This document shows, piece after piece, positions 8,649 through 50,794 of a stretch of DNA of 64,000 bases; position 1 is the first letter of the stretch; every line of letters starts with the position of its first letter. The notes beneath the pieces were generated by a model. It was given only the letters and a program-made list of their open reading frames with translations, did no database searches and was not told the DNA's origin. A program made the position numbers and the translations under genes. The stretch comes from Takakia lepidozioides (Eukaryota > Plantae > Bryophyta), in NCBI GenBank assembly GCA_030704615.1, contig CM060731.1:78864001-78928000 (forward strand). The letters run 5' to 3'.

Positions 8649-8650
8649 AG

Positions 8651-20400: not shown

Positions 20401-22176
20401 GACTGTGTTTAGCTGTCTCCGTCGCCGCGAAGAAGGGGAACCCCTGCTTGACCAGATTACAAATACAGTGAAGGTTGTTCACCAAGAGTATACGAAACAG
20501 TATGCGGCATCGGCTTTGGGATCCAAGGGCATGTTTCAGTTGATTCAGCGGAAAGGCTCATCTCGCAACTTGATGGCTCTGATGAATAATGATGGATCGG
20601 TTGCGAAAGCATGGCCGCTTTTGTCTGTGCAAGTTGATAAAAGACCCGCGGACTGTAATTTTGGGGACAGTGGAGTAGGCACCCCACTCTATGGACCATT
20701 GTCTGTTGGGAGGTCTGAACCTGTAAATTTGCAATTTGGAAGCCTTGGTTTGAGTGCATGGCCTGGTGATAAGGGGGGCACCAGTGAGAACGGTAGCAGT
20801 AGCCGGGATGAAGGGAGTGGGAGTACAAGTGAGCTCCTTCACCATGCATCTTCATCTGTATCTTCTCTGATGGCTGGCGATGGCCCGGAGAAAGAGGTTA
20901 ACTGGCTTCCTCTCCCTCTTTCTTTCTTTCTTTCTTTCCAATAATACGCACCTGTTCTGCCGTTTTTGTCCCCATCCCTGTTATCCTTGCAGGACTGCCT
21001 GCTAAGATTGAGATAAAGAGAGGGACAGCAGATCTTGGTTTTGAAGAAAGGAGTTGTAATGAGAACAGTGTCTATATTGACAGTTGTTGCAATGTCAGAT
21101 TATTTGTTTGGGCATTTGCTATGAAGCCCTAACTCTATCTGCTGTAGGATAGGCTGGGCATCACAATCCACTCAGGAGCTGGTTCAGGAGAGATATTTCA
21201 AGCAAGTTCAGTCTAGTATGAAAACTGTATTACAGAAGTACAGGATTTAAGGGGGGTGTTACTGTCAGGGACAGGCAGTAGGCAAGTTTAGACTGTTGAC
21301 TTGAAGAAAGCACTTTGGAGGACTATGGACTGAAAGTCAAGCACTCCTAGTGTATACCCATACTGCAATGTGCGAAGAAATTAAGCTCTGGCATGCAATT
21401 TCTCAAGAACAACCTTTTGGTCTGCTGCTACTTGCCTAATGACTGGATTACATAGTTGAACTATGTTGGTGTCTATGCTTTGAAAAGTTTCGACCGATGA
21501 GAGATATAGTAAGGAGCTAATCATCTTACCTTGTCTGATCTGCAGCATACTGAGGAAGTAGAAGTATCAGGTAGCGAGGAGGAGGTAGAAGATACCTTGG
21601 AAGGTGCTGATAGCAACGGCGAGAACAGTGACCCTGAGCTTGAGCCTGTGTTGGAAGATGATGTATGTATCTCTCTCTGAAAATCACCCTCCTTTCCTCA
21701 ATTGTCCTCTGGACCTCCTCAGGCATCTCATTCTTCTTGTATACATTACAAACAGTTTATGCACCACGTCACAGTTTTCACCCAAATATATTCAAGAGGA
21801 GTTTCCTGCAAAGAAAGAAGGATTGTTGGCATTTTACATACACATCATGTTTTGTTGACAGTTGGAAGGATCAGTTGATGAGGAGAGCGTGCATTCTGAT
21901 GACAGCGATGTGGAGTACATCGAATCAGTGGAAGGGGATGATGGTTATTGGTCCTATGATGTGGAAGAAGCTCCTCCCTCCCCCCAACTGGCCCAAACCG
22001 GCACTGATCATGCTCCATCGAATCTAGGCAAGGGTAAGGCCAGTATGACACGGTTACATTCCTTTGATAGGGCACTAGCTGGTCATGGTCAACCTCAATT
22101 ACGGAAGACACAGTCTCATAAAATATCCAGAGACACTTTCCTCAAACACTTCCCTCAAACACCCAACTCCACCTAA
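17435..22176 (+). CDS. LPA1: P-loop NTPase domain protein LPA1 homolog (2-phosphoglycerate kinase-like), multi-exon
   Basis: Approximate exons: 17435-17590 ([23 protein letters not shown]), 18145-18459, 18870-18951 (Walker [15 protein letters not shown]), 19099-19638 ([20 protein letters not shown]), 20153-20896 ([25 protein letters not shown]), 21546-21661, 21862-22176. GT-AG junctions. Confidence 0.9.
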
Positions 22177-24263: not shown

Positions 24264-27200
24264 CTACTCCTTCAGAGACTTTTCAACATCAACTACAAAA
24301 CGATAGCGCACATCATTCTTCTCAAGGCGGGCAAGAGCTGTGTTGATATAGTCCATGGGAATCGTCTCAATCATTGGTGCCACGCCATGCTCTCCACAGA
24401 ACTCTAGCATCTCTTGTATTTGCTTTATACCTCCTACTGCACTCCCAGTGATTATCTTCATCCCTGCAACCACAGCCCGTTTATTATGAGACCAAACAAT
24501 GACTTCCACCCTCATTGTTGAGGAAAGTACCTAGTGACTCCGAAGTTTTTCAATGACTATGCAAGTGACCGAAACTAATCATCATGATATTCTCCTCTCA
24601 ATATACAGGTACGCATGGCACCCTTACCAAAAGACAAAAGGTTGACTTCTAAGCATAAAATATGGTGTCACTTCACCCGGAAGAGCTACTGCTTCCTGTA
24701 TGGAAGGACTCGAAAGTCATAAGGTACCCACACATTAGGTGGCCGGTTGACCCCACGACCCTCTTTCCATAGTGACTGGTGTGGCCTGTGCATTGAGCAC
24801 ATATTTGGGAGATCTCAACGTGACAAACAAAACAAAACACTATGTGGCTTTGAACCCTACCATTGAACCCCCGACCACTTGTAAGGCAGCCTTGAACCCT
24901 AACCATTGGGCCATCTGTTGGATGCTATACCCATACAAAGTAGTTGTTTTGCTCTAAATCTTTTGCTGACACATCACACCTCCGTCCATTCTCATGATTT
25001 GTATCTCAGATTGAGACAAGCTCAATAGAATGCAGCAATCAGACCTCAAATGATTTACATACAGCTTCAAAGCTATTAGTGTGATCATTAAAACATGCTG
25101 TTTTACCTCCAAACACAAGAAAAGGAGTGAACTTTAGCTCTTTCGCGGCACCAACCAACACAAACACTCCACCAGTCTTCAAGAGTGGGAGATACAAGTC
25201 AAGTGGATGCTCTGCTGAAGCTGTGTCGATTATAAAGTCCAAGCTATTGGCCACAGCCTACACCCACGCACCCAACCGAGCCATTATAGTAAGGACGGAG
25301 GTGCTAGTATGACGTCAGCTTCGAGGATTGTTGCAACCTTATTGCAATACAGAGCAATGAGTTCTATACCCTAGTCCCACTACAAATCAGCAGCCTCCAT
25401 TTGGATCCTCTCACAAACTAAGTGCAACGATTCATGCAGGCAGGAAGGGTAAACGGATTCTTGAGAGGAAACTGGCCTGTACACTTCTCTCTTTCTGTAG
25501 ACATTAATTAAGCAGAAAGCAATCTGTCAGTCAAGAGAAACACCTGCACTTCAGCCTTATTTGCGGTAACCAGGAAGCGGTCAGCACCAAGGACAGTAAG
25601 AGCTTCCTCCTTCTTGCGTGGTGATGTGCTGAGGACTGTGACATGGAGCCCAAACGCTTTGCCAAACTTGACAGCCATATGCCCAAGGCCTCCCAAGCCG
25701 ATTACTCCAAGGTGCTTCCCAGCCTGGTTCATGCCATGGCGCACCATGGGGCTGTATACCGTGATGCCCGCACACAACAGTGGTGCAGCAACATCTGATG
25801 CTAGGGAGTTGGGTATCTTCAACACAAACCTGGAGTGCGCCAATCATTCATCCTCTGATCAGATTCCTATTCATTCATTTTTTCGGGTTTTTACTGTTGT
25901 TCGCTTGCCTGTCTTTCAGTCCATCTTTAGCTCCAGAATACTCCCACCTTCATTTGTGTGTCTCTACACATAGCTAGCATTGACTGTCCAGCATCTCTGT
26001 TTCTCCTCTATCATAGGCCAACCCGCCCACCAGAGCCCTTCTTTGCTACTGACTGTCCTTCCTCTCCCTCTCCCCACCCCACCTTTTCGATCCTTATATC
26101 CCAAGAGAATTGATGTTCTAAACATACAGAACCTATCTGTGTAGGGCCTTCTGTATCAGAAATGTAAGCAAAAATGACTCATGGCTCAATTGAATATCAC
26201 TGTGATCCCTGCAACGGCTTAACAGCAACTGCTCCTTGATATCCCCATCGGAGTCCTTCCACCCATCGAGATTCACAAGGGAAAACCAAGAACGATTGCA
26301 AAACTAATAAGAATTCGTCAAAGCAGAGGCTACCTCTGGTGAGCAATGATGAGATTAGAAAATCCGCCTTTTGTAACAGAACCATCCACATCGATGCCAT
26401 TGAATGTACTAGTAGGATGGTTCACACAAAAATTCTCCATATCCTTGTTGCAGAACTCACAATCTTGGCATGAGTTGAGATAGAATCCAATCCCCACACG
26501 TTCACCGGCTTTGAATCGAGATGCATTGGAGCCCACCTCCGTCACTACCCCCACAACTTCATGTCTAGAGCACAAAGAGTTTGAAGTTAACATAACTAGA
26601 TTAAATAATAAAGTTGAAGCATTCCTTTGTTTCATTCTCTCCTCCTTTCTAGGAGCGACAGATATAAGAGCACACAAACAAGGAGCAGATAAAACGAAGA
26701 TTGCCCCAGGAAGCTCAAATATTCCACAAGAATAAGGACAGCTCATACCCTGGAACCATTGGATATTTGGCATCACCCAGATGATTTTGGAGCCACGACA
26801 GATCACCAGAGCAAACTCCACAATGGGTAACACGAAGTGCCACATCATCTGGCCCTAATGACCTGCACATCCCAACATGGTTCCTGAACTGTGTGAAGAA
26901 ATGAGTAGTACCCATCTTCTACTGAAACTTGAAGGGTGTCCTTTATCCTTTTCTTCAGAGTGACTAGAAGTGGAACCACGGCCACGCTCCTCACTTTTGT
27001 TTCAAGATAGAGGGCGAGAGAAGCAGAGCTGGAATCAAGCTCGTGCATTCTAGTGTAATTTCAATCCCGGCCCACACGTCACAAGTAAGAGTAGCACCAG
27101 TTCCTCACAAATAAACTCTGAATGTGACTGTTCCACGCACTGTCAAACGCCCTCACCTACCATGTCATAATGCACAGCAATATGGTAGCACCATCTTGAA

Positions 27201-27454: not shown

Positions 27455-30240
27455 CAGACCTGGAAAGTCAAGCCACTCAAGCTGGTTACATATATATCAT
27501 GGACTCAGCTTATAATCAGAAAGATACATCTGATATATTTTCCCACACGTGTAAAAAACCCGAGCATTCAGATCATACACATTGACGACGCGAAGTTTGT
27601 AGTCAGTCTGAGTCCTGAGGTAAAAATACCCGGCTGAAAAATCGAAAGAGACAGCAGTAACAACACCACTAAGTAGCAAGCCAGCAGTAAACGTAGAAAA
27701 TGACACCTGTGCTCATGAAGTGTGACTCCTTGCCCCTACACAGATATGACAAATGAGGTAGAGAAACTAAGAGTGACAAGACCAGAAATGACTAATTCTT
27801 TTTGTAAATCCTGGTATGGAAGACAGCATCTCAATGTGAATGGTAACTTCAGATATTTGTGTTATTGCTCTGTAAGTTCTTTCTACATGGGAATTTATAT
27901 GGGTTGAAACATCTCTTGTTTCCTTCAACCTGGAAACCCCAAACCATAAAATCCAAGAAAGCATTACGAAAACCAGCACTAAATTGCTGCACAAGGACAG
28001 ATCGCAGTGGGAAGGTGAGCTGCCAAGCATTTTCTGGTCGTCAAAAGTAAATGACGCTGCCTCTGTGGGCGCTGAGCAGCCTCCGAAGAGACTATCGCCC
28101 TATTCTATCATAACAAGTAAAGCAGAACACAAGCAACTTATGTGCCCGTTTTATTTTAAAACCTCTCCTCCCGTGGCCCTATCTTCATCCGGTGGGTGTG
28201 GGAGTTGACTCTGAAAGTTCCCAAACTGATTGGCAGGGTGGCGGTCCAAATAGTACGGCATCAGGATGCGGTTATCCTTGATGTCAAGGATGTGATCCTT
28301 GTAAGAATGGGGCAAAATGCATTTCAAGGGGAAGGCTCCCCGCCGAGGGAGTTGCGCCCGACATTATAGAAAAACATAGTAGAACCACAGAAAGGAAAAG
28401 GAAGTTTAACCTCCAGCACCTCAAAGAGAGTGCACAACGAACGATATTGCCAAATTTGAGAGGTGAAGCTTACCCGCACAGAAGTGGACAGTGTGATTCT
28501 TCCCAGCTCAAACAGCTTACTGGGTCTCGCTGGCACTCTTCTACGCAGCTCTAAGGATTTCGCAAAACAAGCACTGGATTTGGTGATGGAGGCATGACAT
28601 CCGTTCTTAAAAGATCTAGATTTTTCCCCAAAGCAGTTGACTAAATTATCCATCGAAGTACCCGTCGAAACTTCTGTGGACCCCGTTTTGTTTGCAGCCC
28701 AAGTTCCCTTTTCACTACGTAGGCATGTCTGCTGTTTCTCTCCAATTTCTCAGCGCTTAGCATCTCAGCGCTTTACACTTAGCATCCAAAGACGAGGTTT
28801 TCTCTGGGTCCTGTTAAGTTTTCACGCATGAAGTTGGGAATGCAGTGGGCACGTGTTGGTGTAGGGACCCAATGTGATCCATGTATCCCCCTTAGATGGG
28901 GTTTTCTACTGACTTATTGTCTCTTAAGGCTTATGCCACCAGCTTGTCTTATGTCAACGGCTAGATTATCCCTAAACTAGATGATGTGGCATCCTAACTG
29001 GATGGACACTTGACTACAATCTGAGGAACCAATCAGGACTCAACAGCCTGTTAAGATAAGATCATGGCCTCTGGATTATAAAATGGATCAACTGGAAACC
29101 TAAGGGACCAGTGTACTTTGGGATGATCATTGAGGTGTATGTGGTGGCGAATGTTGGATGAACGGAGTAGTCTATCAGTAGCATCTATTTCCTCTGTGCA
29201 AGATCCCTTCTTCCTCGCAGGCTTCCTCTGCCGAACTAACATCCCTCCCTAAGCACCTACCCGCAGAGGAGGTGGAACAAGCCGGGTGTGTGAGAATCTT
29301 GGTGGAGACGGGTGGCAGGATTTCGTTAATCATTGCTTGGACATTCTTCGCTTGTATGCCAGATAGAGGCATACTGACGGCTCTGCAATGGCGGCGCTTA
29401 GTTATTCTCATTTATGCTTGTGCTTTTGCTTGCTTCTCGTTGTTGATGTGTTTTCTCGCGATTTTGTGATCAGCAGCCATGGCATCGTCGTCGCGCACTC
29501 TCGCTGAAGAAGAGCTCAACGCCTACAAGGAAACAGCTCCGGGCAATTTTGAGGCTGTCTTTGCTATATGGATCAAACTGGTGGTGGAAGTAGACTATCC
29601 TCCCCTCACTGAGCAAATTTGAGCGTCTCGAGCTCATCCTAGACACACCTTCCGACCACTGGGTGTGGCAGTTTGAATCAACTGCTGCTCTAGAAGGCCT
29701 CAAACCCACGAACACCCCGGAGGAAGAGGCGGAGCAAAGAAGGAAGTGCATCCAGGCTCACTACAAGGAAAAGGTGCTTTTTGCACCCGAATCGCGGTTG
29801 CGATTCTGTCCAAAACGACTGTGCGTGGGACTCCAGGTTGTGAATGATGACTTGCCAGTCGTCGCAGTTGTTTTTATGCCATGTTGGCATAAAGGATGGA
29901 GTATACAAGTCGCAGAAGTGAACTCCGGGTTTCACACCGATTTATAGGCTGATTTCCAAAAATCGGGAAAAACATATTTTTATATTAATGAAATTTGCAG
30001 TCGTGTTGACGACTGCGGGTTGGACCCCTCGAGAACATTTTTATCAATTGTAACCAATATGGCACTATTTTGAAATTACAGTGACACGCGTCGAATTGCG
30101 AGCGGGACAATTGATAGGGAGCTCGGGTTGTGAGCTCTGTAAGTCGCAGTGAGGGGGCCGACGACTTAGCGAGATTTTCAAGTCACTCCTGCTCGGCGAA
30201 CGCGACCTCCATCTCCTTCTTCTTCCCTTCCTTCATCTAC

Positions 30241-30317
30241 TGTGTTTGCAATGCGTGTGTGATCCTGGCAGCCTTGCAAAAGGGCAAAGAGGTCCATGCT
30301 GACATTGTCAAAGCTGG
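30241..30317 (+). pseudogene. PLS-class PPR gene relic, part 5' of the DNMT element
   Basis: VCNACVILAALQKGKEVHADIVKAG; the frame resumes at 41181. Confidence 0.8.
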
Positions 30318-30765
30318 TGTCGTGCGCATACATATCGCTACACAACTACATCGCTGTCCAAAACCACACAACACATGTGCACACCACACACTAGTATACC
30401 ACTAGTCTACCACTAGTCCAGCCACTAGTCCAACCACTAGGCTACAACTAGTCAGTCACTAGGCTGCCACTACGCTGCCCACTATGGCAGTCACTAGTCC
30501 ACACAATCGCCCCCCTAGCTGGTGCTTAGGTCCCTCTAAGTCCAGGTAGCCACAAGATGTGATAGTGACCATAGCCTCACTAAGTCCTCCACCACTATCC
30601 CTACTACACTCAAACTCGATAGATCAAGAGGCCGGGTGCAAGAGTTGCCCCATCGTTAGTCGCCGTCTTGCAACCTGTGAACTTGAGCTTGGGATCTCAT
30701 GTATTGACTCCTATGAGCTTGGCCTCCCATGTCTTGTTAGCTGCCTCCAGTCATGTCCACTGCCA

Positions 30766-32334
30766 CTATCCCAAGCAGTGTGGACACAACCAATCTCCGT
30801 CAGGAACCTTCTCAAGAGGTGGTGTCAAGCATCCCATATGCCAACCCCTTGAGCATCGATCACACACCAGCATGGTGGCTGCCCCTTTGGCAGACCCACA
30901 GAGCATGCACCTCAAACCTGCAGGTACCACTGCCAAGTTTGGGTCAACTCTGCCATCGACATTGGGAAGGTGACATGGCGCACAATTACGCACATGGTCC
31001 TTCCAAGTCATGCCATCCCGACCCTCCAAGATCAGGACCCCTGAGGGCAACACCTCTCGAACCCTCAGAATAACACGCCCTGCAGTAACATCCAGAGTCG
31101 TAGGAGCAGTCTGCTGCAAATAAACATAGTCACCAGGGCTAAACCTCCGAACCCCAGGACGATATCCTCCACCACGTATAGTGGCATACCTCAACGTATC
31201 ACGGTGCTGTGCAATGGCAAGGTTCTCAAAAGCCATGGGCATGACTTTCTTGAACAACTCTGCACGCTGATCACATGCACGTACCCACACGTCCGGATCG
31301 TCAAGGTTAAGGACTTGAGCAGTGTCCCTACGAATGGCTGCAGGCAAATCCGGCTCTCGGCCAAAGAGAAGGAAATATGGTGAGAAGGAGGCAAGTGATG
31401 CTTGTTTGCTGAACCTGTAGCCCATGGCTAACCAAGGAACCTGAAGATCCCAATCTCCTAGGTGTCCCTTCTGCAAGCCATACTTGCGCAAACCCCTCTT
31501 CACCGTCTGAACAACTCTCTCTGCTAAGCCATCGGCCTCAGGATGATCCCGAGAAGTGGTGCGGTGGTCTATCAAGGCTTTATCACACAAAGCCTGAAAC
31601 TCCCCCAAGAACTCTCTCCCTTGGTCCGTGAGTACCTCAGCTGGAGCACCAAATCGGCTAAGCACACGATCCAAGAATGCATACGCAGCCCCCTCACTAG
31701 CCTTGTCAGGCAATGGAACCAACTCAATCCACTTGGAGAAGTGCTCCACCATCACCAACACATATCTGTGGTGGCGCATAGTCAGTGGCAACGGTCCTGC
31801 GAAGTCAAGACTCCACCTGTAGCCCAATCCCATGATAGGTAAAGGATGCAACTGTGGTGTAGGGGCGTTGAATGAAGCACGCACCCTGTCACACACCATG
31901 CACCTAGCCACAAACTGTTGCACCTCTGTATGCATACCACGCCACCAATACTGCCCCTGCAGTAAACTGTGAGTGCGTCGCACTCCAAAATGCCCCAACT
32001 CCTCATGGGCATGCCGCACTAACCGTGCACGCTGTGTGGGGTGAGGCACAATCCTCACCCGACCATCCTCCCACACTCGAAGTAGGTGTATCCCCTCCCA
32101 CTTGAACCTCTTGGCTCGTTGCAGGATCCGATCCCTCTCCCTGGCAGTCACAATGGCTGCCGTGTCTCCCGTGCGGAGGTAGTCCAACACAGCCGAATCC
32201 TCATGTATATCTCTGGCACCACCTAGCTCATCACTAGCCTCAGGGTCCTCAGACACTCCGTCTACAGTCATCCTGTTGTAGGTCCAATCTGACCTCCCGA
32301 TGCCAAGATACACAAAAATGCAGATGCGTGCCAT
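30766..32334 (-). CDS. Integrase (HHCC zinc finger, DDE core) with C-terminal PHD finger
   Basis: HEELGHFG...CMVC; WSLDFAGPL; LTDQGREF; GLAERVVQ; terminal C4HC3 CMLC...CDRC...WHMGC...WLCPHC. Confidence 0.95.
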   Translation of the reverse strand: MARICIFVYLGIGRSDWTYNRMTVDGVSEDPEASDELGGARDIHEDSAVLDYLRTGDTAAIVTARERDRILQRAKRFKWEGIHLLRVWEDGRVRIVPHPTQRARLVRHAHEELGHFGVRRTHSLLQGQYWWRGMHTEVQQFVARCMVCDRVRASFNAPTPQLHPLPIMGLGYRWSLDFAGPLPLTMRHHRYVLVMVEHFSKWIELVPLPDKASEGAAYAFLDRVLSRFGAPAEVLTDQGREFLGEFQALCDKALIDHRTTSRDHPEADGLAERVVQTVKRGLRKYGLQKGHLGDWDLQVPWLAMGYRFSKQASLASFSPYFLLFGREPDLPAAIRRDTAQVLNLDDPDVWVRACDQRAELFKKVMPMAFENLAIAQHRDTLRYATIRGGGYRPGVRRFSPGDYVYLQQTAPTTLDVTAGRVILRVREVLPSGVLILEGRDGMTWKDHVRNCAPCHLPNVDGRVDPNLAVVPAGLRCMLCGSAKGAATMLVCDRCSRGWHMGCLTPPLEKVPDGDWLCPHCLG

Positions 32335-33818
32335 CCCGGCACCATCTCCTCGTCCGTCTCACCATGCCACCGAGCTCCAGTGTCATCCTGCTGGCTCATG
32401 CATGGATTGCGACTCAATCCATCCGCATCCCGATTGACCAAACCCGGTCGATGCACAACCTGAAAGTCATACTCCTGGAGTATAAGTGCCCACCGTGCAA
32501 GCTTCCCCGTAAGCTTGTCTGACTCCATCAACCACTTGAGTGGCTGGTGATCCGTGACAAGGGTGAAAAGATTGCCGTATAGATAGCACCTGAAGTGTGC
32601 CACGGCCCACACTGCAGCTAAGCACTCTCCCTCATATGAGCTGTACTTAGCCTCTGCAGCGTTGTTCGAGCGGCTAGCGTAAGCCACTACGAACTCTCTT
32701 CCCTCATCATCCACCTGTGTGAGCACCGCTCCAAGCCCCAGCATGCTCCAATCCGTATGCAGCTGAAAGGGACGCCCCCTGATAGGTCGTCTCAAGATAG
32801 GCGCCGAGGTCAACCTCGCCTTGAGCTCTTGAAAAGCTCGTTCCTGCTCATCTTCCCACTGCCACTCCTGGTCCACCTTGGTCAGCTTGGTTAGAGCCTT
32901 TGCAATGGTACTAAATCCCTTGACAAACCGTCTATAATAGTTTGCCAACCCCATGAAAGCTCGAACTCGGCTCACATCCGTGGGGCGTGGAATTTGTGCA
33001 ATGGCCTCTACCTTAGTCTGCTGTACCCCCAATCCTCCAGGATATATCATGTGACCCAGATACTCAATCTGGTTGTGGAAAAACTTGCACTTCCCCGGAT
33101 GCAACTTCAATCCGTGCGCTCTCAAGCGCTCCAATACCACCTGAAGGTGTCTCTCATGCTCCTCCATCGTAACACTAAAGATGATGATGTCATCTATGTA
33201 GCACCGAGCAAAGTCCACCCCTGCTAGAATCCTATCCATGACTCTCTGAAACTCTGCAGGAGCATTCTTAAGCCCAAATGGTAAGAACCGCCACTGATAT
33301 AGGCAATCCTTGCCGTGCTCATTGATCCCCCAGAATGCCGTCTTCTGCTTGTCCTCCTTGATTGGCAACTGGTGATATCCGGATCGTAAATCCAAAGTGC
33401 TAAAGGCCTTAGCATGCCCGATGGCATCAAAGATCTCCTCTGGTGTTGGCATGGCATACTTATCGGACTTGGTCTGACGATTTACAGGCCGGTAATCACC
33501 GCACATACGTCTCTCCGTCCAATTGCCATAGACATCCTTCTTGGCTGGCATCACTGTGGCTGAAGCATACTCTCCACCAGAGAGCTCCACCAAACCTGCC
33601 TCCCAGAGATCTTGAGTCCTCATCTGAATCAAAGACCTCTCCATGTCACTGTATCTATAGGGTCTCCGAAAGATTGGCGTGTCAGTGGCCAACTCAATAC
33701 GGATCTCTTGACCCTTCAGTGCTCCCAAGTCCTTCAAACTGAAGGCAAAGCAATTCCTGTAAGCCCTCAGGAAACCGCCGTATACGTCGTCTCTCTCCTC
33801 CGGTGACAATGGGTCCAA
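32268..33818 (-). CDS. Reverse transcriptase plus RNase H (gypsy type)
   Basis: RMCGDYRPVN, LDLRSGYHQ, LPFGLKNAP, YIDD, LHTDWS, EGECLAAVWAV, TDHQPL, DADGLSR; 516-aa open frame. Confidence 0.97.
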   Translation of the reverse strand: MDPLSPEERDDVYGGFLRAYRNCFAFSLKDLGALKGQEIRIELATDTPIFRRPYRYSDMERSLIQMRTQDLWEAGLVELSGGEYASATVMPAKKDVYGNWTERRMCGDYRPVNRQTKSDKYAMPTPEEIFDAIGHAKAFSTLDLRSGYHQLPIKEDKQKTAFWGINEHGKDCLYQWRFLPFGLKNAPAEFQRVMDRILAGVDFARCYIDDIIIFSVTMEEHERHLQVVLERLRAHGLKLHPGKCKFFHNQIEYLGHMIYPGGLGVQQTKVEAIAQIPRPTDVSRVRAFMGLANYYRRFVKGFSTIAKALTKLTKVDQEWQWEDEQERAFQELKARLTSAPILRRPIRGRPFQLHTDWSMLGLGAVLTQVDDEGREFVVAYASRSNNAAEAKYSSYEGECLAAVWAVAHFRCYLYGNLFTLVTDHQPLKWLMESDKLTGKLARWALILQEYDFQVVHRPGLVNRDADGLSRNPCMSQQDDTGARWHGETDEEMVPGWHASAFLCILASGGQIGPTTG

Positions 33819-34129
33819 TGTCAGGCTCCCAATTGTCCTCCGTAACTACAACCTTAAGTCCAGTGGGCTTAGAGGTAGAGGACGCGTCCGTGGTTGCTAT
33901 GCTGCAACCTCTTGAGCAGTACTCCCTACCTGCTCAGTCAATGACAAGGCTCATCCTGCCCCATCATCTCATCCTTGAGGACCTCCTCAACCCGAGAAGA
34001 ATCCCAACCTCATCCATCACAGCCGCCTTGGCTGCCAACTCCCTCTGAACCTCGAGCACCTCCCACGTGTGCCATGGATGCATGCACCCCGTGGTCCTCA
34101 CATGCTCGCCCCCACTCACTGCCTGTACC

Positions 34130-35170
34130 GTCTCGGTAGGCAGAGAGACCATTGAGGGAAGTGTATTCCGCACTCTGCGTTGCTCAGCTAGAGCCAAGCT
34201 GATAATCCAGGTCAAGCAATTGAGATCCATTGCTTGCCCCAACACTTGACGACGTGATGCCTCAGAAAGAGACGACACCGCCGTGGTACCAGTGGTAAAA
34301 CCCATTGCCCGCTCACGCTCGTCAGCATTAGGCTCCACTAACTGCTGCAACTGAGCATCCCACAGGAGGCCAGGTCCACTATCCCGGAAAGCATGCGATC
34401 CTGGGAAGCTGAGCAGTGTAGTGTAGGTAATGCTGCTCGTGGTTGACCCACCTTGTTGACCACTGCCAAAGGCGAACGGTCATCGTGTCTCACACGTTGA
34501 GACTGCCTCCCTGTGTCCAGAATGTTATCCACTGTGAGATGTGCTGGCCGCTGCACCCCATCAAATGCACGCTTGAGCAGTGCGGGTGGCATCATGTTAG
34601 TCCACCATAGCCGTGGACGATGAGCCCGTGACCCCACTGTAGCTGCATCTAGCAACACTGCTGACCCAAGCCACGACCGGACTTGATGCACACTGGCCAT
34701 CACCCTGGCCCGAGAATCGCCCATCAGTGGCACATTCTCCAAGATGTATGCTGGAGATACAGCTTGATGAAGCTGCAAGTGGCGCAAAACCCGCACCATC
34801 TCCCAAAACAGACCCGACCTCGAGTCTCGCAATCCATTGCCATGCCCGGCTGATGAATGCCCTTGGCAGGGCCAAACCTGCCACTACCAGATCAATGGAG
34901 CCAACCCGCTCCAAATCCTGCGCCCCCAGCAACGAAATGTCTGCTGGCAAGGCCTGCTGATATCCACGAATTGCAGACACCGACAACAACTCAGGGTACC
35001 GCTGCACCAACTGAGCAACATGGCGAAGTGAAACGCGTCGTGCAGTCTCATCCCTCTCCACATACAGGTAACGCCGAACTCGTACACTGCCTGTAAACAC
35101 AGCAGCCAATCCGGTGCTGATCCCGCCAAACAAGTCCAGAAGACAAATGCCTTCATCCGGAGACTGCCAC
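34130..35170 (-). CDS. C5-cytosine DNA methyltransferase domain (DNMT3-like) within pol; split by frameshifts
   Basis: Motif I LLDLFGGISTG; II YLYVERD; III ADISLL; IV DLVVAG/WPCQGHSSAG (catalytic PC, +1 slip near 34875); V RDSRSGLFWE; VI YILENV; VIII AHRPRLWWTN; IX ERERAMGF; X RRQVLGQAM. Canonical order. Confidence 0.92.
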
Positions 35171-35429
35171 ACAATAGGTGTGGTGTCCAATGGAGACAAT
35201 TGAGGTGGTCCTGGTGCAATCCCCACACTCTCCTCCTCTCCTGACGGTACAAAAGCCTCCACCCAGGCTTGTTGCACCCGTCGATCAGCATCCCGCTGCA
35301 AATCCTTGCTCGTGCCCCACAATGGAGTCTGAGCAACCATGGTAGGCAACTCCGCCATACCATACATGTCATCCTGCTCTCCCGGAGGTGGTACATCCTC
35401 TGAATGAGCATTGCCCTCAAGCAACTCTC

Positions 35430-35960
35430 TAGGCCAACTCTGCCGCTGTGAATGCTGCTAGTGTCGGCATCTTGCCTCGCTGGGCAACCGCAACTCCTCC
35501 TATGAACGTCACAGGGAGCTGCACACGCCGGCCCTCCCCTGACTGCCATGCAGGCCTATAGGAAGCTGACTCCTCCCAAAAATCCAGGGTGAAGCCCATG
35601 GGGTACAACACTGCCCCACCAACCAGGACATCGTATGAGACTGCGTCTGTCACAATGGCCTTGGCTCGCATCACTGAGCCATCTGTAGGGTGATCCGGCC
35701 GTAGTCTGATAGCCAACTCATGCCGTGTCATGCCCCGAGCCTGCTCCGATCCTCCAGAGACGTCTGTATCTGGAAAGGACAAGGCTCCATATCCGCCTCC
35801 GTGAGGCCCAAGCCTGCAATAGCAGCTCTGCCAGCATCAGTGGCTGAGCTCCCGAGTCCAACAAGACCGCAGTGGCCGGTACCTCTTGCCTGCCGGTCCA
35901 CTCAAACAGAAAATGCCATCCTGGTTGTCTAACATGACAACTCCAGGTGTCACCATGGCG
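35430..35960 (-). pseudogene. Aspartic protease of the DNMT retroelement
   Basis: VLLDSGAQPLM at ~35835-35866 and YDVLVGG in ORF 35429-35782. Confidence 0.8.
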
Positions 35961-36489
35961 CGCTCAATGGCTGGCCTAGCTGGCAGCTCCATCAACCTGG
36001 CAGCTGCAGCTTGCCATGGCGCCGCCGTGGCAGTCTTGACCCTCAAATCCGAGGATCCCTCCGGCACTACACTCCCACTATCTCCGCAGAAGATGAAGTA
36101 ACCTCCCCACTCTCACAGAGTGTAGCTGCCAGCCTGAACACCTCAGCTGGTCTTACCCCGGCGTCGCAATCATGGTAGCCGAGAACAATGGAGCCTGGCA
36201 CACAGATGTGGCCGCTCCTAGCAGCACACTAGCTGCCGTAGCCTTGGCAACACTAGGTAGTGGTGCTACCCGTGTAGCTCTCCCAATGGCATAGTAACCT
36301 CCGCCTCGGTAACAGTCGGGCGAGAACTAGGTGCCATGGATGGCGTCGACACTGTCTCCGCCAATGTGAATGACTGAGGAAGCCTAGCCTGACGGCTTGC
36401 CTCCCCACGCTGTGGATCCAACTCCACCTCTGCACCTCGTGGCTCAGGAACTCGTGCTGCTCCTCGAGTCACGGCTGCAGCAGACTCCA

Positions 36490-38070
36490 CCTGCACTAGT
36501 GGTAGTGCTGCTCCACACATGAATCCCATGCCTCCCATATCTCCTCCCTCAGGAGCAGGAGTGGACCATCCGGCCTTAGAGCCGGTACCACCTGAGCTGT
36601 AGCCATGGCAGCGAGCCTCTGCTCTAGCTGCTGAAGCCGGTTGGCCATGCCTTGGTCAACACCCTGACCTCCGCGTCCTTGGCCACGTTGAGCTTGCCCT
36701 TGGCCTGCACCTCGTGGCTGGCCACCTCGTCCTCTCTGGGCTGCTCCACCTCGCCCCCGGCCACCATTGTTCCCTTGGAACTGGCCTGGGCGCAACTCAG
36801 GATGCAAACCATAACACTGGCCTCTCCATGCCCGTGCTTGCCACAATGCCCACACTGCAACTGTGCAGGCTGTGCATGTGCCGGCCCTTTGCCTCCCTCT
36901 GGCAATCCTTCTTGACATGGGGTCCTCCACATGTCCAGCACACCACATCCGCCCGTTGTTGGCCAGCAAATGAAGGGAGAGACCCCTGCATCTGAGGTCC
37001 TCTCTGCCCTTCCCTGAGCTTCACCTGAGCCCCCTTGTTGCCTTGAGCACGTTGAGGTAGTGGTTGGCTAGGAGCACCACTACCCCGTGGGTGTCTCCTT
37101 AGCAAATCCCACCATGACCACTCGTTCCTCCACCATGTTGAGCTCTATCCGCTCTGCCAGCAAAAACACATTTGCTAAGGTGGGTTGGGCCGCTTGTAGG
37201 AGAGTTGCATCCCGCACCCTTCTCCTCAGCTCCTTGTCCAATATCCCATACCAGAATTGGACTGCCTGAGCTTCCGTAACCCCTTGGGTTACATTATCAA
37301 GCGCCTCATGCGAGTGAAAGCCTCCCTCAAGCTCTCGGTCGGCTTCCGTTGGAACTCTTGCAAGCTCCGCAACTTCTCTGTCCTCACCCCTTGGTAGTTC
37401 CCTCTCAACTCTTCGAAGAACTCCACAACAGGGTTGAAGGCAGGCACGGGTGCTAGTGCTGGTGCGGTAGTGGCTTGGGTGGTGGACGTCGTAGCTACTG
37501 TACCACCAGTCCCACTGCTACTTGCTGAAGCTGCCGGTGCAGCGGCAGGTGTAGCCACTGCCCTCGTGGCTCTAGTGCCCCTAGTGATGGAGACATAGTC
37601 GGGTGACCAGTACATCCTCCACTCCTCGATCTCAACCTCATGCCCCCGCCTGAACTCATGGTAATCATCCATAGGCGGCCCCTCAAGGTGCTGAACCCTT
37701 TCCATGCCATGAAGGCGTAAATAGTTGTGGATTGCGCATTTGCTGCAAATCACACCAACTATCAAACTCTTGGATAAAATCATCCAACTCAATGGTGCCC
37801 ACCGCCCCAGAGTACCTTCGTGGCCCCTTGGTAGCTCCATACATCTCCTCCATTGTGTCCCACAACAATGGCAAAGAAACAACTTGCACCGCCGGTATGA
37901 GTCCTCCTGATTCACAATCCGAATCAGAACCTTCCGTAGAAGACACAGGAGGTGAAGGTGGCCTAAACCGCACACCTCGTCTCGTGTACCCACTAGTATC
38001 GCTAGTGCTCGAACGGCACTGTCCCCAGCAACTAGTGGCACCTCCGTGTTGACACTCAACCGGTCATGAA
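36490..38070 (-). pseudogene. gag-like region of the DNMT retroelement (frameshifted)
   Basis: RRYSGAVGTIELDDFIQEFDSWCD; LRSLQEFQRKPTESLREAFTRMRRL; two knuckles CWTCGGPHVKKDC and CGHCGKHGH-x4-C; RGG-rich tract. Confidence 0.8.
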
Positions 38071-38689
38071 CATGTCCCTAACCCCTCTCCACAAGGTAAC
38101 CGGGTAGAGAACCTGTTGCGGCTTATGGTTTGGAATACTAAGTTCCTAACATAGCCTACACCTGTACCTGCATCCACCGCAAGCACTCCTATGGTTGGCT
38201 GGTCATCACCTCCCTCACCACAGGAGAAACAATGATGGTCTGGCTGGTCATCACCCCAGCCTCACCATCGACAGCATGCTCTAGGACTGGCCGGTGATCA
38301 AATCCGGACCAATCACCTATAAAAACGCGCCCACACAAAACTAGCATGGCGCACAGTCAAGCATGCAGGTATGGAGGGGATCCAAACACAAGAAATCAGA
38401 CGACAACTCCCCCACCAAAAACAACTCCATGCTCCTGCAAGGACACCCCAGCCCAAACCCGGACTGACTCTTGCCTCCACCTACGGAAAGGTCTTGGCCT
38501 AATGAGAGGGTGGAAACTACGAGGAAGAGAAGCTAAAGCAATGCCTAACCCCAGCATGCCTCATCCCAACACTTCCTCTCCTCTCCCTCACTTGCATGAC
38601 CATGGGAATATCATGAAGATACTCCTCAAACCGCCCTCCACGAGCTTCAAAATTCGGCCTTCCAGACCACATGCCAGTCCTTAGGCAGT

Positions 38690-39330
38690 CCACCAGTGCC
38701 TCCACGAGTCAGCACAGGCCGTCCACAGGTCAACACGGGCCACCACAGACCAGCACAGGCCCACACAGCTCACTGGTCAGCCGTCACAGTCCCACAGGCC
38801 ACTTGTCCCACATTCAAAGGCCTCACATTCACAGTCACAGGGGCACGGCAGGCCCGTCACAGCCCCAAAGGCCATTTGCCTCAGGCACAGCCCTCACAGC
38901 CCTCACAGCCCCAAAGGCCTGCCACAGCCCCTCACAGGCCCCTCCTGTCACAGCCCCTCACAGCCCCTCACAGTCACAGGTTGTCACAGCCCCTCACAGC
39001 CCGTCACAGCCCCAAAGGCCAGCACGGCCTTTTTCACAGCCTGTCACATCAGGTCACAGCCTGGAATCACATTCACAGCCATTCAACAGGCCCCACAGTC
39101 ACAGCCCGTCACAGCCCCAGGCCTCAGGCACAGCCTCACAGCCGTCACAGCCCCAAAGGCACACAGCCTGTTCACAGCCCGTCACAGCCCCACAGGGCAC
39201 ATCACAGCCCCTCACAGCACAGCCCACAGCCGTCCAACATCACAGCCCGTCACAGCAGGCCCTTCACAGCCCCAAAGGCCACACAGCCTGTCACAGCCTT
39301 CCATCACACACAGCCTGTCACAGCCCCACA
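38690..39330. repeat. TCACAGCCC minisatellite in the 5' region of the DNMT element
   Basis: Dozens of (G/C)TCACAGCC(C) units with CCCCAAAGGCC variants. Confidence 0.9.
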
Positions 39331-41180
39331 CATGGCCGCTCTGGCAGTTTAGCCATTTCTCCAAGGGGTTTAGCCACGCCAAGCTAGGGTTTGTGTCTCT
39401 TGGACTCTAGGCTTCTTTCCACCGAGCTATGGTGGCTGTGAGGAAATCAGCAAGGTATCCTTGCTCTTTCGGCTCCCACACACCACCATAGTAGCCCTAA
39501 GCCATGAGGTGGTTGCCACAAACCAAGCCTTCTTTCTCACTTAGCCTCCCCAAACACGCCACTAAACTCAATGGCAAACAACCAAGCCCTGCTGGTTCCC
39601 AGCCCTTGTGAGCACTCATTCAAGCACTCTCATTGGCCATAGCATCTGTCTTAGAGCCTATTCAGCCCTACACCTGTTGCTTCAAGAGTTGCGCTCCCTT
39701 CAAGCTTGAAGTTGAAACCCCAACTCACATAGGCCCTACAAGTGCTTTCTTTCACTCCAAGTGGAAACCAGCCCTAGACCTTCCGTTCTAGCTCTCTAAG
39801 CTTGAAAACAAGAGCCTCAATGGGCTGAAGGCATGCTCCACACATGCCCCACTCTCACCATAAGAGAATCAGCTCCTTTGCTTCATTTCTTGCACCCACA
39901 AACCTGAAATACAAGCTTCAGCAGGCTGAAAGCATGCTCTACATGCCCTACAGGGAAACCAGCCCCTTCCTTCCTTTCTTGCACTCCCACACCTAAAAGT
40001 GCAAGCCTTCACCAGGCTGATAGCATGCTCCACACATGCATTGCCCTCACATAAGGGAAGTCAGCCCTTCCCTCTTCCTTGCTTGCCCTCCAAGCTTGAA
40101 GATGGAAGCTTCAATGAGCTGAATACATGCTCCACACATGCAACCTCTTCACACAAGAGATATCAGCCCCCTATCTTGGCTCCTTGGCTCCTTGATGCTC
40201 TCTAAGACAAGACTAAGCACTCCACAGCCTTTGCCAAGCTCCTGAAACCCTAAGGCTTACATTTCCAGCCACAAGACACTTCTCTTGTGGTGCAAGAGCT
40301 CTTCTTCCAAGCTCTGAAACCCTAGGTGCACATTCCATGGCCTTGCCGCACCTCTTAGCTCCTGTTCCAGCCCTGCTCTTGCCATGACAAGAGCCCTCTC
40401 AATGCTGAAGCTCGAGATTGAAACCCAATCTCACCATACTCCACAAAGTGCACTGATTTGCCCCAAGCCAAATCAGCCCTTTCGCTTGGTCTTGCAATCC
40501 TTCACACAATGAAGCTCGCATTCCCAAGTCCAGTTCTCAGCTTTGCCACCAAAGCCACTATAACCTGCTCTTGACTGGTCCTCTTCCCAATCGTGCTTGC
40601 TCATGCATGTACACAATCTGAAACCATCAAGGTGCTCTGGAATTACCTACAGTATGGTGCTTTCATCTCTGAAGCTGAAGATCGAATGCCAAGGTTTACC
40701 ACCTCGTAACCCACATCGCCTCCGCTTCTAACAACCAAGAGCTCCACGGTGCTCCTTGCATAACAACTTGGTTTCTCTCATTCTCAAGCAAAAACCACAA
40801 GTGCTACAACTAACTCGTATCTAGCACTCATAGATACGAGCTCATCTTTCTCGAGTGATAAAAGAAGAATACAAGCACAAGCTCATGCGAGCTCACAAAG
40901 CTGAAGCATAAACTCATGCATATATAACCTCATCACTCAAATACAAGTCAAGCCAAGTGCACCCCACGCCATGGGGAATCCACACTACGGCGCCATAGCT
41001 AGGCGCGGTGAGGCTCAACTCGAGAAAGATGAGCCTCCCGCGCTTGCCGTGAAGATAACCACTCCAGGGCCTAAATCTGCCTTGACCCCTGGATTGACAC
41101 TTGGGCCAATCCCAAATGTCAATATGTAAAAGCTAGCTATTTCCTAGCTAGTTTCACACTAGTGGTAAAATAACTTGACA

Positions 41181-41471
41181 CTGGAATCGTACCAGATGTT
41201 GTTCTGGACACTGCTCTGATGAACATGTATGCAAAATGTGGGAGGAGCGTCGAGGATGCAAAGGGAGTGTTGGACAATATGGCTGAACGATATGTGGTGT
41301 CTTGGACTGCGATGATCACAGCTTATGCACAGCAGGGGCACGGGATGGAGGCTTTGGAGACCTATGAGCAAATGATAAGGAAAGATGTGAAGCCCGACCA
41401 GATCACCCAAGGTTAGGTTTGCAAGGTGTGTGCGAGCCTGACAGCGCTTGATAAGGGCAAGGAAGTCCATG
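41181..41471 (+). pseudogene. PLS-class PPR gene relic, part 3' of the DNMT element
   Basis: GIVPDVVLDTALMNMYAKCG..VEDAKGVLDNMAERYVVSWTAMITAYAQQGHGMEAL...VKPDQIT, a stop, then CASLTALDKGKEVH, cut by CACTA at 41472. Confidence 0.85.
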
Positions 41472-44400: not shown

Positions 44401-45362
44401 GCCTCGATCCCAACTTGTACCTCCCTTGCTCCTTGTCGGATTCTTCCTCATCCTTCGAGGATGCTTCTTTTCTTTCGGCAGACGTTCAGCCGCTGCAAGT
44501 TCGAGTTGTGGAGGGCAGTATCTGGCTCGAAGGCGAAAACATGCCTGTCGGACAATGTCCCTGCCCACATTGAGGCACCTGAGGGACAAAACGGGTGGTT
44601 AGTAGCATGCGACATGCAATTGCAATCGGCCAGGGGACAAATGGTGCACTTGAAGGCTTCTCGTACCGCATGTGAGGTCAAGAATCCGCCCTTGGACATC
44701 TGAGCACGTCTCCATGAGGGTTGGATTAAAGCATGGCTCCGGGTCCGGCTGTACCCAACGGTTTGTCCTGTCTTGTTTCCTTTCGGCATACTGGAGTGGG
44801 GCAATAGTTGTAGAGGACATCGTAGGTACAGGGTCCACAACGCATCAACAAGACGACCGTCGTTGCGGAATTTGAACGTAGACCCTCTCTTCACAAACAA
44901 TATGCTCAAACACCAATGTCTGCACATCCAACAAAGAGGGATCACTCCACTCCAGGGTCTAGTTCAGATACCCACAATATGAAGTGAATGCAATAGATTG
45001 ATAACTTACACTCTGGCCCTCTGTTTCGCAACCCCTGCGTATTGATGCAGAACCATTTTTGATGAGGACCGGGGTGACACTTTCGGTGTCCACCTGCCCA
45101 CATTGTCTGTGGTCTTCTCTTGTGCAAGGACCACCATACATCCACCATCATCCAGGAGCATCCCGCCAGCCCAAACCGACTCTCCAGTAGTCCTCAGTAA
45201 ACCTTTCCAGGTGGGCACACCATCTAGGCCCTCCAGCAGCTCCCCATCTGGAATATCGAGGAGAATCATATCGCAGGTTCTCTCCACCTCAACCCTACCC
45301 CGAGTGCTCTTGCAATCCGTGCTCACAGCCGTGAAGAATTCCATCATGGATTCGAAACCAGG

Positions 45363-45683
45363 TGTCGTGCACCTCACTTCGGTAAGCTCCCCTCAAGTCA
45401 TAGTTACTCGCTTTGATGCGCGCGCCTGACTCCCAACCTGGCCGCCGGGCCAACTTGGAGCTTCGGCTGCTCACCGGGACATAACGGTCCCCCTTCGCTT
45501 CCCCCACTAAACCCTCCACCTATTTGGGCCTAGTGGAATTCCCTTTGGTAGATGGCAGTCCGGAACAGCTCCCCACTCTTTGTCGCTTTCCGGCTCGCTC
45601 GCTTACTCACTAGTTTTTGGTCACCACAGGGGCAGCCCCTCATGTGTCCCGACCCCCTGCCCTCAAGGCAAAGGGCCGCGACA
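45363..45683. mobile_element. Solo LTR of the chromovirus family, with ~400-bp internal deletion
   Basis: TGTCGTGCACCTCACTTCGG...AAGGGCCGCGACA; 5-bp TSD CCAGG (45358-45362, 45684-45688); deletion junction at CACCA microhomology. Confidence 0.95.
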
Positions 45684-46519
45684 CCAGGGGTGTCTTTAGG
45701 CTCTATACTGGGAGCCCTCTTCTTGGCTTTCCCCTTCTGCTCCTCCATAGACTTGGTTTTGTGCCAACCTTCTTCCGCCCTTGGCAGCCAAAGCATAAGG
45801 AAGCTCTCATTGACACATTGGATGATGGTTGGGGGTTCTAGCTTTGGCCTCTTCGGAAATGTCACCGCCGAATACCGCCGTGTAGGCTCGCCCTCAAATG
45901 CCAACTTCTTGGCAGAGCCAGTCCCAGACCAAACTGATTGGGAACCCCGGACGACGGTGACTTGGTAGCAGCAGCAGCAGATCGCAGGACCTTGTACAAA
46001 TTCGTCGTCGGAGTCACTCCCTTGGGGCCCCTCCTGCGCCCCTCTGGTGCCCTGGTGGTTTTCTGTTTTTGGGTGTTAGTGTACTCCCCTGTTTCCTGTT
46101 CCTTTTCTTTTGTCCTTTATTCTTCTCATTCAATTTCTCTTGAATACCTGCCTGAGCAAGCTCTGCCGCTTTCTTGGACTGGGCAAGCGCTCTCGCCTCC
46201 TTTGGACCCAGCGGAGCAAGCGGAGCCCGTTTCGTCGAGCCTCAGCATCCAGCTTCATTGAAACTCGGATGGGTCGAGCGAGCCGGGCAGAAGGTCCACA
46301 TACCAAGGGCAGTCGCGCAAATGTTCCAGACCACTCCTTCACGATGACGTCGTGTACATGGAGTCAGCCCCAGGGTTCCTCCATGCGAGGAAGAATGGCG
46401 GCTCGAAGGACAGATGTCCTTTCTCCAAAGGGAGAACTTGCAGTACCCCTGCTTCAAGAAACACACAGAATGAGGTCCCGGGAACGAGGTAAATTTTGGG
46501 GAAGGAAAATGACTAGGCC

Positions 46520-47030
46520 CGGAACTGGAAATTCCGGTTTCGGTGCCTACCACACTAGGGGCCCTGCACTGGAAAACCGGCGCCATTTTCCCAGGTTGGG
46601 GCCGAATATGCCTAAGTCCCAGAACTCACTGGGCCCGGAACTGGAAAAATGGCGCCAAATTTCCTGTTTCGGTGCCTGCCTCTAAAGGGACTTAGCCATT
46701 TTCGGGCCCGTTCACTGGAAATTCGGCGCCATTTTCCCAGGTTGGGCCCGAAAATGGCTAAGTCCCAGCTGACTTTGCCCTGATCTGGAAAAATGGCGCC
46801 GAATTTCCGGATTCGGCCACCTCCCCAGGGACCTAGCCATTTTCAGGGCCCTCAACTGGAAATTTGGCGCCATTTTTTACCCAGGTTGGGGCCGAGAATG
46901 GGTAAGTCCCAGATCTGACTGGGCCTGCAACTGGAAAAATGGCGCCGAATTTCCGGACTGAGTGCCAAGCACCCCCTGGACAGCCATCCCTGAGGGCCCG
47001 AATTCGGAAATTTGGCGCCATTTTTCCTAG
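46520..47030. repeat. Palindrome array 1 (GGAAA-x-GGCGCC-x-TTTCC cores, irregular spacing)
   Basis: About 7-8 imperfect palindromes, e.g. CTGGAAATTCGGCGCCATTTTCCCAG, separated by related AAGTCCCAG/GGGCCC linkers. Confidence 0.85.
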
Positions 47031-50000: not shown

Positions 50001-50794
50001 CATTGCAAACTATCTAAGGTTCACTCAACCAATAACATGAAACACGATGAACAAATGAACACGAATTCCATAAGACGGGAAAACAGGGTGAAATGTTTTG
50101 AAGGCACTTCATCTGCTCAGACAATCTTCTCAGCTCAGCATGGATTTCCTTAATTCCGAGCTGCAACATGTTATCTGCAGCGAGGTGTGCACCCTGTTGC
50201 AAATCTGAATGCAGCAACGACCTGGCTCCTTTCTAACCACTCTGACCTTGATCATTCTTCTCAACAACTCCTGCTTTTGCGATGCAACCATGCGCTTCCA
50301 GGGCTGCCAGGCAGAAGATGCGAAAACAAACAAAAAAAACGAAGAAAACCGAAAGAGGAAGGGGCGGACCTTAGAGTGCTCGGCTTCAGTTGGCGTGGGC
50401 CGTGAGCAAGACAATGGAATTTCCTGCTGTAGCTTAAGTTTGGCCATGCGAGAGGTTGGACGTCGCCTGTAGTACAAAGCCTTCAGCTTCCGCCGTGGTC
50501 TGGATGTGGGGTCTCTCTCAGGAGAGCCACGCCCTTCTCCACGCGGCATAAGTCCCAGCAAAAGAAAAAAGATCTCGCCAAATGTGTGCGTACATGCCTC
50601 CAATAGAAGTTCATCCAAGTTTAGCATCAGGTTTCCAAGGCGTATCCGAGAAGCAACCGCGGAATCCCTGTGTCGTCAGCCCGGTTCAAAACCGACGGCG
50701 GAGGACATTTAATGCCCAACTGCGCCATTAATGTATGGAGGTCGGTCACAGGTGCCCACCGAATATCCCCCCGAGACTTCGTCAATCGCCCGCT

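Follow-up and report, generated by a model that had tools for sequence, protein, structure and literature searches.

A Gypsy element with a DNMT3-type methyltransferase and a PHD finger in the moss Takakia lepidozioides, and permuted repeats at the ends of its relatives

Insertion and coding region

The 64,000-nt stretch of Takakia lepidozioides DNA analysed here (the window, on which the coordinates are based) contains a single Ty3/Gypsy insertion of 10,863 bp at 30318-41180, which is read on the minus strand and has the termini TGTC...GACA. The insertion target is a pentatricopeptide repeat (PPR) fragment, of which 4 bp, CTGG, are present on both sides as a target-site duplication (TSD), at 30314-30317 and 41181-41184. 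The PPR reading frame spans the insertion, and the joint 30313->41181 of an empty site (this site itself or its paralogues) is found in contigs from three sequencing runs of two samples. The element encodes Gag, a protease, a DNMT3-type methyltransferase, reverse transcriptase (RT), RNase H, an integrase and a PHD finger.

The order Gag-protease-RT-RNase H-integrase and the D-D-E core of the integrase are those of Ty3/Gypsy elements, as are the TG...CA ends with a TSD of 4-6 bp. Two direct long terminal repeats (LTRs) do not form the termini, however, so that the element is Gypsy by its proteins but not a canonical LTR element by its structure. A Pfam scan recovered DNA_methylase (2.8e-9; 37.3 bits at a cut-off of 22), RVT_1 (6e-33), RT_RNaseH (4.5e-36), rve (1.1e-13), Integrase_H2C2 (3.8e-16) and PHD (1.9e-10), including both domains for which a profile check (PF00145, PF00628) had been proposed in a first, sequence-only reading of this DNA. 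The Pfam listing of the element frames contains no chromodomain, which separates the element from chromoviruses such as Tcn1 and Chlamyvir, and the 12 frames scanned contain no tyrosine recombinase, which separates it from DIRS/PAT elements. An integrase that ends in a C4HC3 PHD finger instead of a chromodomain, as described in the sequence-only reading, thus agrees with the Pfam result and with the comparison across the family.

The same reading had placed nine C5-methyltransferase motifs in order between protease and RT. Not all nine were located; on the minus strand we find what we take to be motifs I (LDLFGG, 35139), IV (WPCQG, 34874), VI (ENV, 34739), VIII (AHRPR, 34625) and X (GQAM, 34242). 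The RT-RNase H and integrase-PHD frames, described as long and open, are indeed open over 525 and 530 aa, but they are out of frame with each other in the window copy, while RT-RNase H and integrase are in frame in 19 of 25 copies (a set that counts the window copy). About a dozen small indels relative to other copies were listed, most of them single-base. The window copy is broken or imperfectly assembled, and since it is broken and also lacks terminal redundancy, it cannot be active. The sequence-only reading had overlooked the most unusual features, i.e., permuted repeats, self-priming and a readthrough stop, and also the lack of an LTR pair.

Conservation of the accessory domains and range of the family

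A search with the central piece of the DNMT domain returned 64 longer proteins, the top ones with 64-73% identity, named sources being Marchantia, Calypogeia, Riccia and Sphagnum; some of these proteins are fused to RT. The same domain order was observed at 80 metagenome loci, corresponding to 65 distinct sites, whose DNMT has its nearest match in a protein of Sphagnum troendelagicum (median 81%), and in four sequencing runs the contig depth of DNMT equals that of RT. All 40 of the 40 aligned sequences share the PC, EN and motif-VIII R residues, and the copies retain an intact WPCQG in 67 of 77 cases and an intact ENV in 67 of 78. DNMT3A/B/C account for 26 of 26 sequence hits and likewise for every PDB match listed for the predicted fold of the domain from a relative (pLDDT 92). 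The C5 domain is Dnmt3-type and unrearranged, and sits within the Gypsy coding region. Absence of the segment from other family copies and a nested insertion, which the sequence-only reading had named as grounds for giving up its proposal, are both contradicted by its presence across relatives in recurring order and spacing; on sequence grounds, the DNMT is an integral DNMT3-type domain of the element family.

Between the window and 48 loci, the median proportions of synonymous (pS) and nonsynonymous (pN) differences in DNMT are 0.73 (near saturation) and 0.21, compared with 0.81 and 0.16 for RT and 0.69 and 0.42 for the protease. These values indicate that between subfamilies the DNMT is under purifying selection, close to that on RT and stronger than that on the protease, as a selection check suggested at the outset was meant to establish. 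CpG depletion was also considered as a sign of self-methylation and was rejected as too weak: three host genes span CpG ratios of 0.43-0.79, which includes the value of the element (0.53), and the ratio is 0.53-0.59 in four relatives and 0.85 in a neighbouring chromovirus.

DNMT and RT share a frame in 29 of 42 copies, and a TAG-CAA-type motif lies between them in 41 of 42 (TAGCAACCC in 23, TAACAACCC in 11); in the window the motif is TAGCAACCA. The sequence UAG-CAR-YYA is a readthrough signal, which most relatives fit in part only, and in the relatives P0235 and P0279 the DNMT-RT frame is continuous with no stop in between. TAG-CAA is a likely readthrough site. As the conserved stop follows the DNMT, this domain would be made at the level of Gag, in excess over RT and integrase.

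The PHD finger is a family trait. In H3K4me3-reading PHD fingers, the second residue ahead of the zinc histidine is an aromatic-cage tryptophan; the window has glycine there, as do nearly all relatives, and the cage tryptophan is thus missing. The best PDB matches of the finger are CHD4, KDM5B/5A, PHF12 and ATXR5, and it resembles the finger of PHF21A as well. The lack of the tryptophan, together with the likeness to CHD4, KDM5 and PHF21A, leads to the prediction that the finger binds unmodified H3 tails.

Parts of the element occur in contigs of 13 sequencing runs from six studies with three organism labels; no RNA run is among those listed, which carries no information on expression. In run X3 the depth adds up to about one million along the element, including the DNMT, versus about 57 on single-copy flanks; contig depth does not equal copy number and is used qualitatively only, but the element is very abundant in its host. 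At 50% identity and E-values up to 1e-30, the family comprises 225 clusters. Among the best 150 representatives, retroelement domains are present in 63 of 65 proteins longer than 1000 aa and a PHD finger in 42 of 53 with an integrase. An Atlas search added one further Streptophyta cluster with 57 members. Cluster look-ups of 20 proteins named no Klebsormidium or Chara member, the protein searches returned no named Klebsormidium or host DNMT3 protein, and searches of viral contigs gave weak phage-like methylase matches only (one locus in one search, 23 in another). Many Marchantia polymorpha gene models (P0007-P0013, P0016, P0022, P0025) turn out to be Gag-protease-DNMT frames of the element; some of them bear the label DNA (cytosine-5)-methyltransferase. 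A DNMT-integrase-PHD fragment in a bacterial metagenome-assembled genome (P0114) is probably algal contamination.

A second protein search revealed relatives in Chlamydomonas eustigma, Haematococcus and Monoraphidium in which the DNMT is located between RNase H and integrase (type II), as opposed to within the Gag product (type I). In quick IQ-TREE runs, computed without host DNMT3 and for RT with one half-length outgroup, the bryophyte clade including the window (support 99) is separated from the type II clade (98 for RT; 96 for DNMT, with 17 of 18 type II rows). The agreement of the two trees is consistent with a long-standing link between DNMT and RT and with the persistence from algal ancestors that the sequence-only reading had suggested, with horizontal transfer as an alternative.

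Permuted ends and the proposed integration route

No LTR pair or other terminal repeat was detected in the window copy by exact seeds, BLAST or local alignment, the best end-to-end local score being 28 against a shuffle maximum of 29. The copy has the form A-coding-B, in which A is a U3-R-U5-like 5′ LTR and B a repeat that starts directly after a conserved G-rich polypurine tract (PPT). Ends were counted over distinct related sites with a visible 3′ end, with duplicates merged by hand and without L005, whose contig stops one base after B. Seven of these 18 sites read A-coding-B-nn-A-B and 11 read A-coding-B, and none ends at A. An exact 4-bp TSD is present in seven of eight sites with both ends visible, and both forms have TSDs. 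The spacer at the B-A junction measures exactly 2 nt in six of six cases and is GC three times, otherwise AT or AC; the AT and AC spacers are deamination products of GC, and the junction palindrome is GACA-GC-TGTC, GACAGCTGTC. The joint between A and B is blunt in four of six cases and contains filler in two, one of which retains the start of the primer-binding site (PBS). In host-run contigs, B-nn-A is joined as 41180->30318 through AC, GC or GA, and A|B as 30507/30509->40862. The direct repeats B1 and B2 are 88-96% identical, and B measures 114 nt in the relatives and about 190 in the window.

Repeat A ends in TCA directly before the PBS, which can form a 17-nt duplex with part of A itself. 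Between the window and L053/L011, 10 of the 17 positions of this duplex differ, and all of these differences are compensated (z -8.3 and -3.7). The covariation suggests that reverse transcription at the PBS is primed by the 5′ end of the element's own RNA. An interpretation as a DNA transposon with terminal inverted repeats, based on inward-facing ACCACTAGT motifs, was dropped after the PBS, the PPT and the B-nn-A junction had been found. Segments of B or A in reverse orientation lie in or beside family copies in L010 (5924-6033), L015 (5934-6043) and L043 (12266-12370), and are possibly nested insertions or auto-integration products.

We consider it probable, with room for doubt, that the copy in the window is frameshifted and single-ended and belongs to a high-copy moss Gypsy family with a conserved DNMT3-type methyltransferase and a PHD-tipped integrase, that this family integrates by cutting an internal GACA-nn-TGTC in its DNA copy, and that the DNMT, by prediction, pre-methylates that copy. 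A master copy A-PBS-coding-PPT-B-nn-A-B, a layout that is observed, would be transcribed from A into the second A. Translation of Gag-protease-DNMT would stop at TAG-CAA and Pol would follow by readthrough, making the DNMT as abundant as Gag in the particle. The RNA 5′ end would then pair with the PBS and prime reverse transcription in the manner of Tf1, and plus-strand priming at the PPT would complete B-nn-A-coding-B-nn-A as a linear cDNA. The true ends of this molecule would be the beginning of B on one side and the last bases of A on the other, and these are presumably not integrase sites. The integrase would instead nick after each CA of the internal palindrome and insert the DNA with a 4-bp TSD. 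Joining of the free A and B ends before or after insertion would generate the replication-competent form A-coding-B-nn-A-B, while collapse of the two B copies or of two LTRs would generate A-coding-B, which, having no terminal redundancy, should be a dead end like the window copy. In a last step the DNMT is predicted to methylate the cDNA and the PHD finger to bind unmodified H3 tails, steering or camouflaging the insertions. The observed forms match these expectations: A-coding-B-nn-A-B is the predicted cDNA permuted at its left nn and A-coding-B is likewise the permuted one-LTR form, which points to internal integrase sites, and the A|B joint unites the two predicted cDNA ends, which fits standard reverse transcription from PBS and PPT.

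Several observations weigh against this scheme. The reversed permutation, A-B-nn-A-coding-B, was observed at none of 20 5′ ends (about 5e-5 if it were as common as the forward one); a plain two-LTR circle gives both permutations, and the finding of only one demands an extra assumption. Possibly the left junction becomes double-stranded first and is hence captured there. The terminal counts all derive from one Sphagnum-like subfamily, plus the joints in host runs. One of the seven A-B-ended sites (L043/L048) is without B1 and three of the 11 B-ended sites are without PPT, and a PBS duplex of at least 10 nt, as compared with control maxima of 6-8, is kept in only 10 of 22 5′ ends, which belong to decayed copies, two of them having it at a second site. 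Among the Sphagnum-like copies, pN/pS is 0.59 for DNMT and 0.90 for PHD as against 0.36 for RT, so that the accessory domains look less constrained within this set, although copy decay inflates such ratios. Finally, the DNMT of the related element KnitGypsy-Dnmt3 gave no methylation in yeast, a result that its authors call inconclusive (PMC5890265).

A further objection is that A-coding-B could form after insertion by recombination of B with B. In its strict version, only A-coding-B-nn-A-B integrates and single-ended copies arise later, in the way of solo LTRs. The high identity of B1 and B2 and the ends and 4-bp TSDs shared by both forms favour this version, but B is short and B-ended copies nevertheless make up 11 of 18; we regard it as possible but not likely. 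It would alter the origin of the window copy only, since the permutation still requires an internal cut. Such a cut would be dispensable if the full A-coding-B-A-B RNA were copied through another kind of priming, as in DIRS/PAT elements, and the integrase used ordinary free ends. The repeats are indeed arranged as in DIRS elements, a likeness already pointed out for KnitGypsy-Dnmt3, and the missing reversed permutation would be accounted for. The repeat borders coincide with PBS and PPT, however, the A|B joint equals both predicted cDNA ends (with filler in two of six), and a tyrosine recombinase is missing from the frames scanned, which makes replication of this kind unlikely.

It is likewise conceivable, but on balance doubtful, that the DNMT and the PHD finger, though genuine and under selection, leave the cDNA of the element and its choice of targets unaffected; the DNMT could work in trans on host or viral DNA, bind non-catalytically or be structural. 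The Klebsormidium enzyme was inactive in yeast (PMC5890265), an antiviral role has been proposed (PMC6338049), and the CpG ratio of the element is not outside the host-gene range. Conversely, the catalytic residues are invariant, both positions of the DNMT, in the Gag product or between RNase H and integrase, are particle-bound, and related SymbioDIRS Dnmt3 domains methylate CG (PMC5890265). An artefact, whether algal contamination, nested DNMT insertion or misassembly, is very improbable. Many single-base frame breaks could be assembly errors, but the TSD is intact and so is the PPR frame, related loci and Marchantia proteins show this order and spacing again, and the host gene at 56110-57159 groups with mosses (SH-aLRT 92 in a quick tree), its best named matches being Ceratodon (75%) and Sphagnum (74%). 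This grouping bears out the assignment to a land-plant Gypsy element in the sequence-only reading and speaks against the algal contamination considered there.

Transposition through a circle junction opened by a DDE enzyme is known from IS3/IS911. Foamy-virus integrase cleaves palindromic LTR-LTR junctions, and the 2-LTR circles of this virus share with the internal cut favoured here the opening, by a DDE enzyme, of a palindromic junction of abutted ends with a short spacer (PMC1180852). In foamy virus and IS911 the junction is formed by joining true ends, whereas in the present family it is already built into the repeat, and the ends of the cDNA would not serve as attachment sites. Self-priming, in which the PBS pairs with RNA of the element itself rather than with a tRNA, is described for Tf1/Sushi and the plant Tcn1 chromoviruses (PMC6317226). 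These differ by their chromodomain and by LTRs of the usual paired kind, both of which the neighbour at 2250-9345 also has. DIRS/PAT/Ngaro elements, including SymbioDIRS-Dnmt3, have the A-coding-B-A-B layout and Dnmt3 in two alternative domain orders, but use a tyrosine recombinase, in contrast to the DDE integrase and 4-bp TSDs found here. A PHD finger as accessory domain, proposed to steer integration, is reported for Gypsy-7a_cRei and REM1 of Chlamydomonas; for Gypsy-7a_cRei the accessible text lists no DNMT and describes paired LTRs (PMC9940879, PMC6673714).

The closest known element is KnitGypsy-Dnmt3 of Klebsormidium nitens, for which DIRS-like repeats, acquisition within the K. nitens lineage and a lack of activity in yeast are described (PMC5890265); the name 'Gypsy-DNMT3' is used in bioRxiv 10.64898/2026.05.21.726589. 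As far as its description allows comparison, it has in common with the present family the Gypsy domains, an intronless, unrearranged Dnmt3-type domain under purifying selection, and the A-coding-B-A-B layout, seen here in the related sites and host-run joints, with one A and one B in the window. Its DNMT lies in the RT open reading frame, which compares with the same frame but an in-frame stop before RT here. Further differences, by description, are the high copy number in mosses and liverworts, the chlorophyte relatives, the PHD finger, the single-ended form and the priming and integration proposed above. The text and three supplements of PMC5890265 do not mention a PHD finger, although the figures and main supplementary PDF may show more. 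DNMT-bearing elements have been stated to be absent from land plants such as tracheophytes (PMC6338049), and DNMT-bearing Gypsy elements have been termed 'streptophyte' (bioRxiv 10.64898/2026.05.21.726589, PMC12344493). The available portions of bioRxiv 2021.11.30.470311, PMC11982613 and PMC9033089 hold nothing specific on this family, and a literature search that did not extend to subscription journals, Repbase and theses found nothing on bryophyte copies or permuted-LTR Gypsy elements. The idea of a writer combined with a reader thus has precedents; the pairing is conserved and partly known already, and its function is predicted from sequence. What sets the family apart from known systems is its occurrence in land plants, the existence of two domain orders, the likely readthrough and, most of all, the permutation of its ends, possibly with a new integration route.

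DNMT-bearing retrotransposons therewith extend from algae to mosses and liverworts, including Marchantia, in which a transposon DNMT3 is genetically testable, and DNMT inventories are affected by Marchantia C5-methyltransferase gene models that are element parts. The end structure would be a natural case of integration from an abutted-end junction, long debated for retroviral circles. It also suggests that tools depending on two LTRs undercount this large family (225 clusters). We are evenly divided on a broader proposal, in which a Gypsy lineage spread across the green plants, ranging from chlorophytes to bryophytes (mosses and liverworts), would have abandoned end-processing: attachment sites would lie head-to-tail inside a repeat, the integrase would open their palindrome, every insertion would be circularly permuted and most would be built-in dead ends, and a Gag-level DNMT3 and a PHD reader would deliver a pre-methylated copy to chosen chromatin. 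If this were true, LTR-pair finders would miss an entire family.

Feature coordinates and neighbouring sequences

Table 1. Features of the insertion and its target in the window.
Feature	Position	Strand	Remarks
Whole element, form A-coding-B, no LTR pair	30318..41180	-	10,863 bp, TGTC...GACA
Left TSD copy, CTGG	30314..30317	+	4 bp
Right TSD copy	41181..41184	+	PPR frame across insertion: KAG left, IVPDVV right
Repeat A, U3-R-U5-like 5′ LTR, TGTCA...TCA, single copy here	40856..41180	-	joints to 40862 in run contigs
Predicted transcript 5′ end, self-primer arm, 17 nt	41018..41034	-	
PBS, directly 3′ of A	40840..40856	-	full complementarity to 41018-41034
Long 5′ leader	38100..40839	-	degenerate repeats: ~10-bp at 38720-39350, ~100-bp at 39760-40170
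Gag	36000..37853	-	two zinc knuckles (36940, 36854), several frame breaks
Aspartic protease	35500..36000	-	LLDSGA at 35864
DNMT3-type C5 methyltransferase domain	34192..35151	-	spread over three frames
In-frame TAG-CAA-CCA, likely readthrough site	33891..33899	-	separates Gag-protease-DNMT from RT-RNase H-integrase-PHD
RT and RNase H, open frame	32268..33845	-	YIDD at 33200
Integrase	30910..32358	-	HHCC zinc finger, D-D-E core, C-terminal domain
C4HC3 PHD finger, integrase end	30775..30909	-	
PPT, AGCTAGGGGGG	30510..30520	-	conserved in Sphagnum-like relatives
Repeat B, begins at PPT, ends GCACGACA, single copy here	30318..30509	-	
Host PPR fragment cut by element	41181..41470	+	left part ~30240-30317

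PPR fragments are located at 30240-30317, 41181-41470 and 49971-50010. Nearly identical paralogues of the interrupted fragment are very numerous in the host runs (depth about 76,000 at 41323 versus 57 on single-copy flanks), which suggests either that PPR sequences have expanded strongly or that a mobile repeat carries a PPR.

An ordinary chromovirus-type Gypsy element with paired LTRs of about 720 bp (89% identical), Gag, protease, RT, integrase and chromodomain occupies 2250-9345 on the minus strand, and a partial third copy of its LTR at 45354-45689 is probably a solo-LTR remnant. An inverted repeat pair at 1742-1851 and 13684-13787 (79% over 110 nt, 11.8 kb apart) encloses this chromovirus and a cysteine/histidine-rich open reading frame (ORF) at 11696-12442. 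Arrays of 53-bp and ~73-bp units at 50888-51400, 51526-52015 and 46553-47035 have a GGCGCC-AATTT core in common and are partly self-complementary; they flank ORFs at 48530-49521 without Pfam match and possibly belong to an unrecognised transposon. Host genes in the window include a P-loop-type protein at 18802-20944 (identified by eye), an alcohol dehydrogenase exon at 26330-26854, a GDP-sugar transporter at 56062-57162 and an ORF at 59605-60507.

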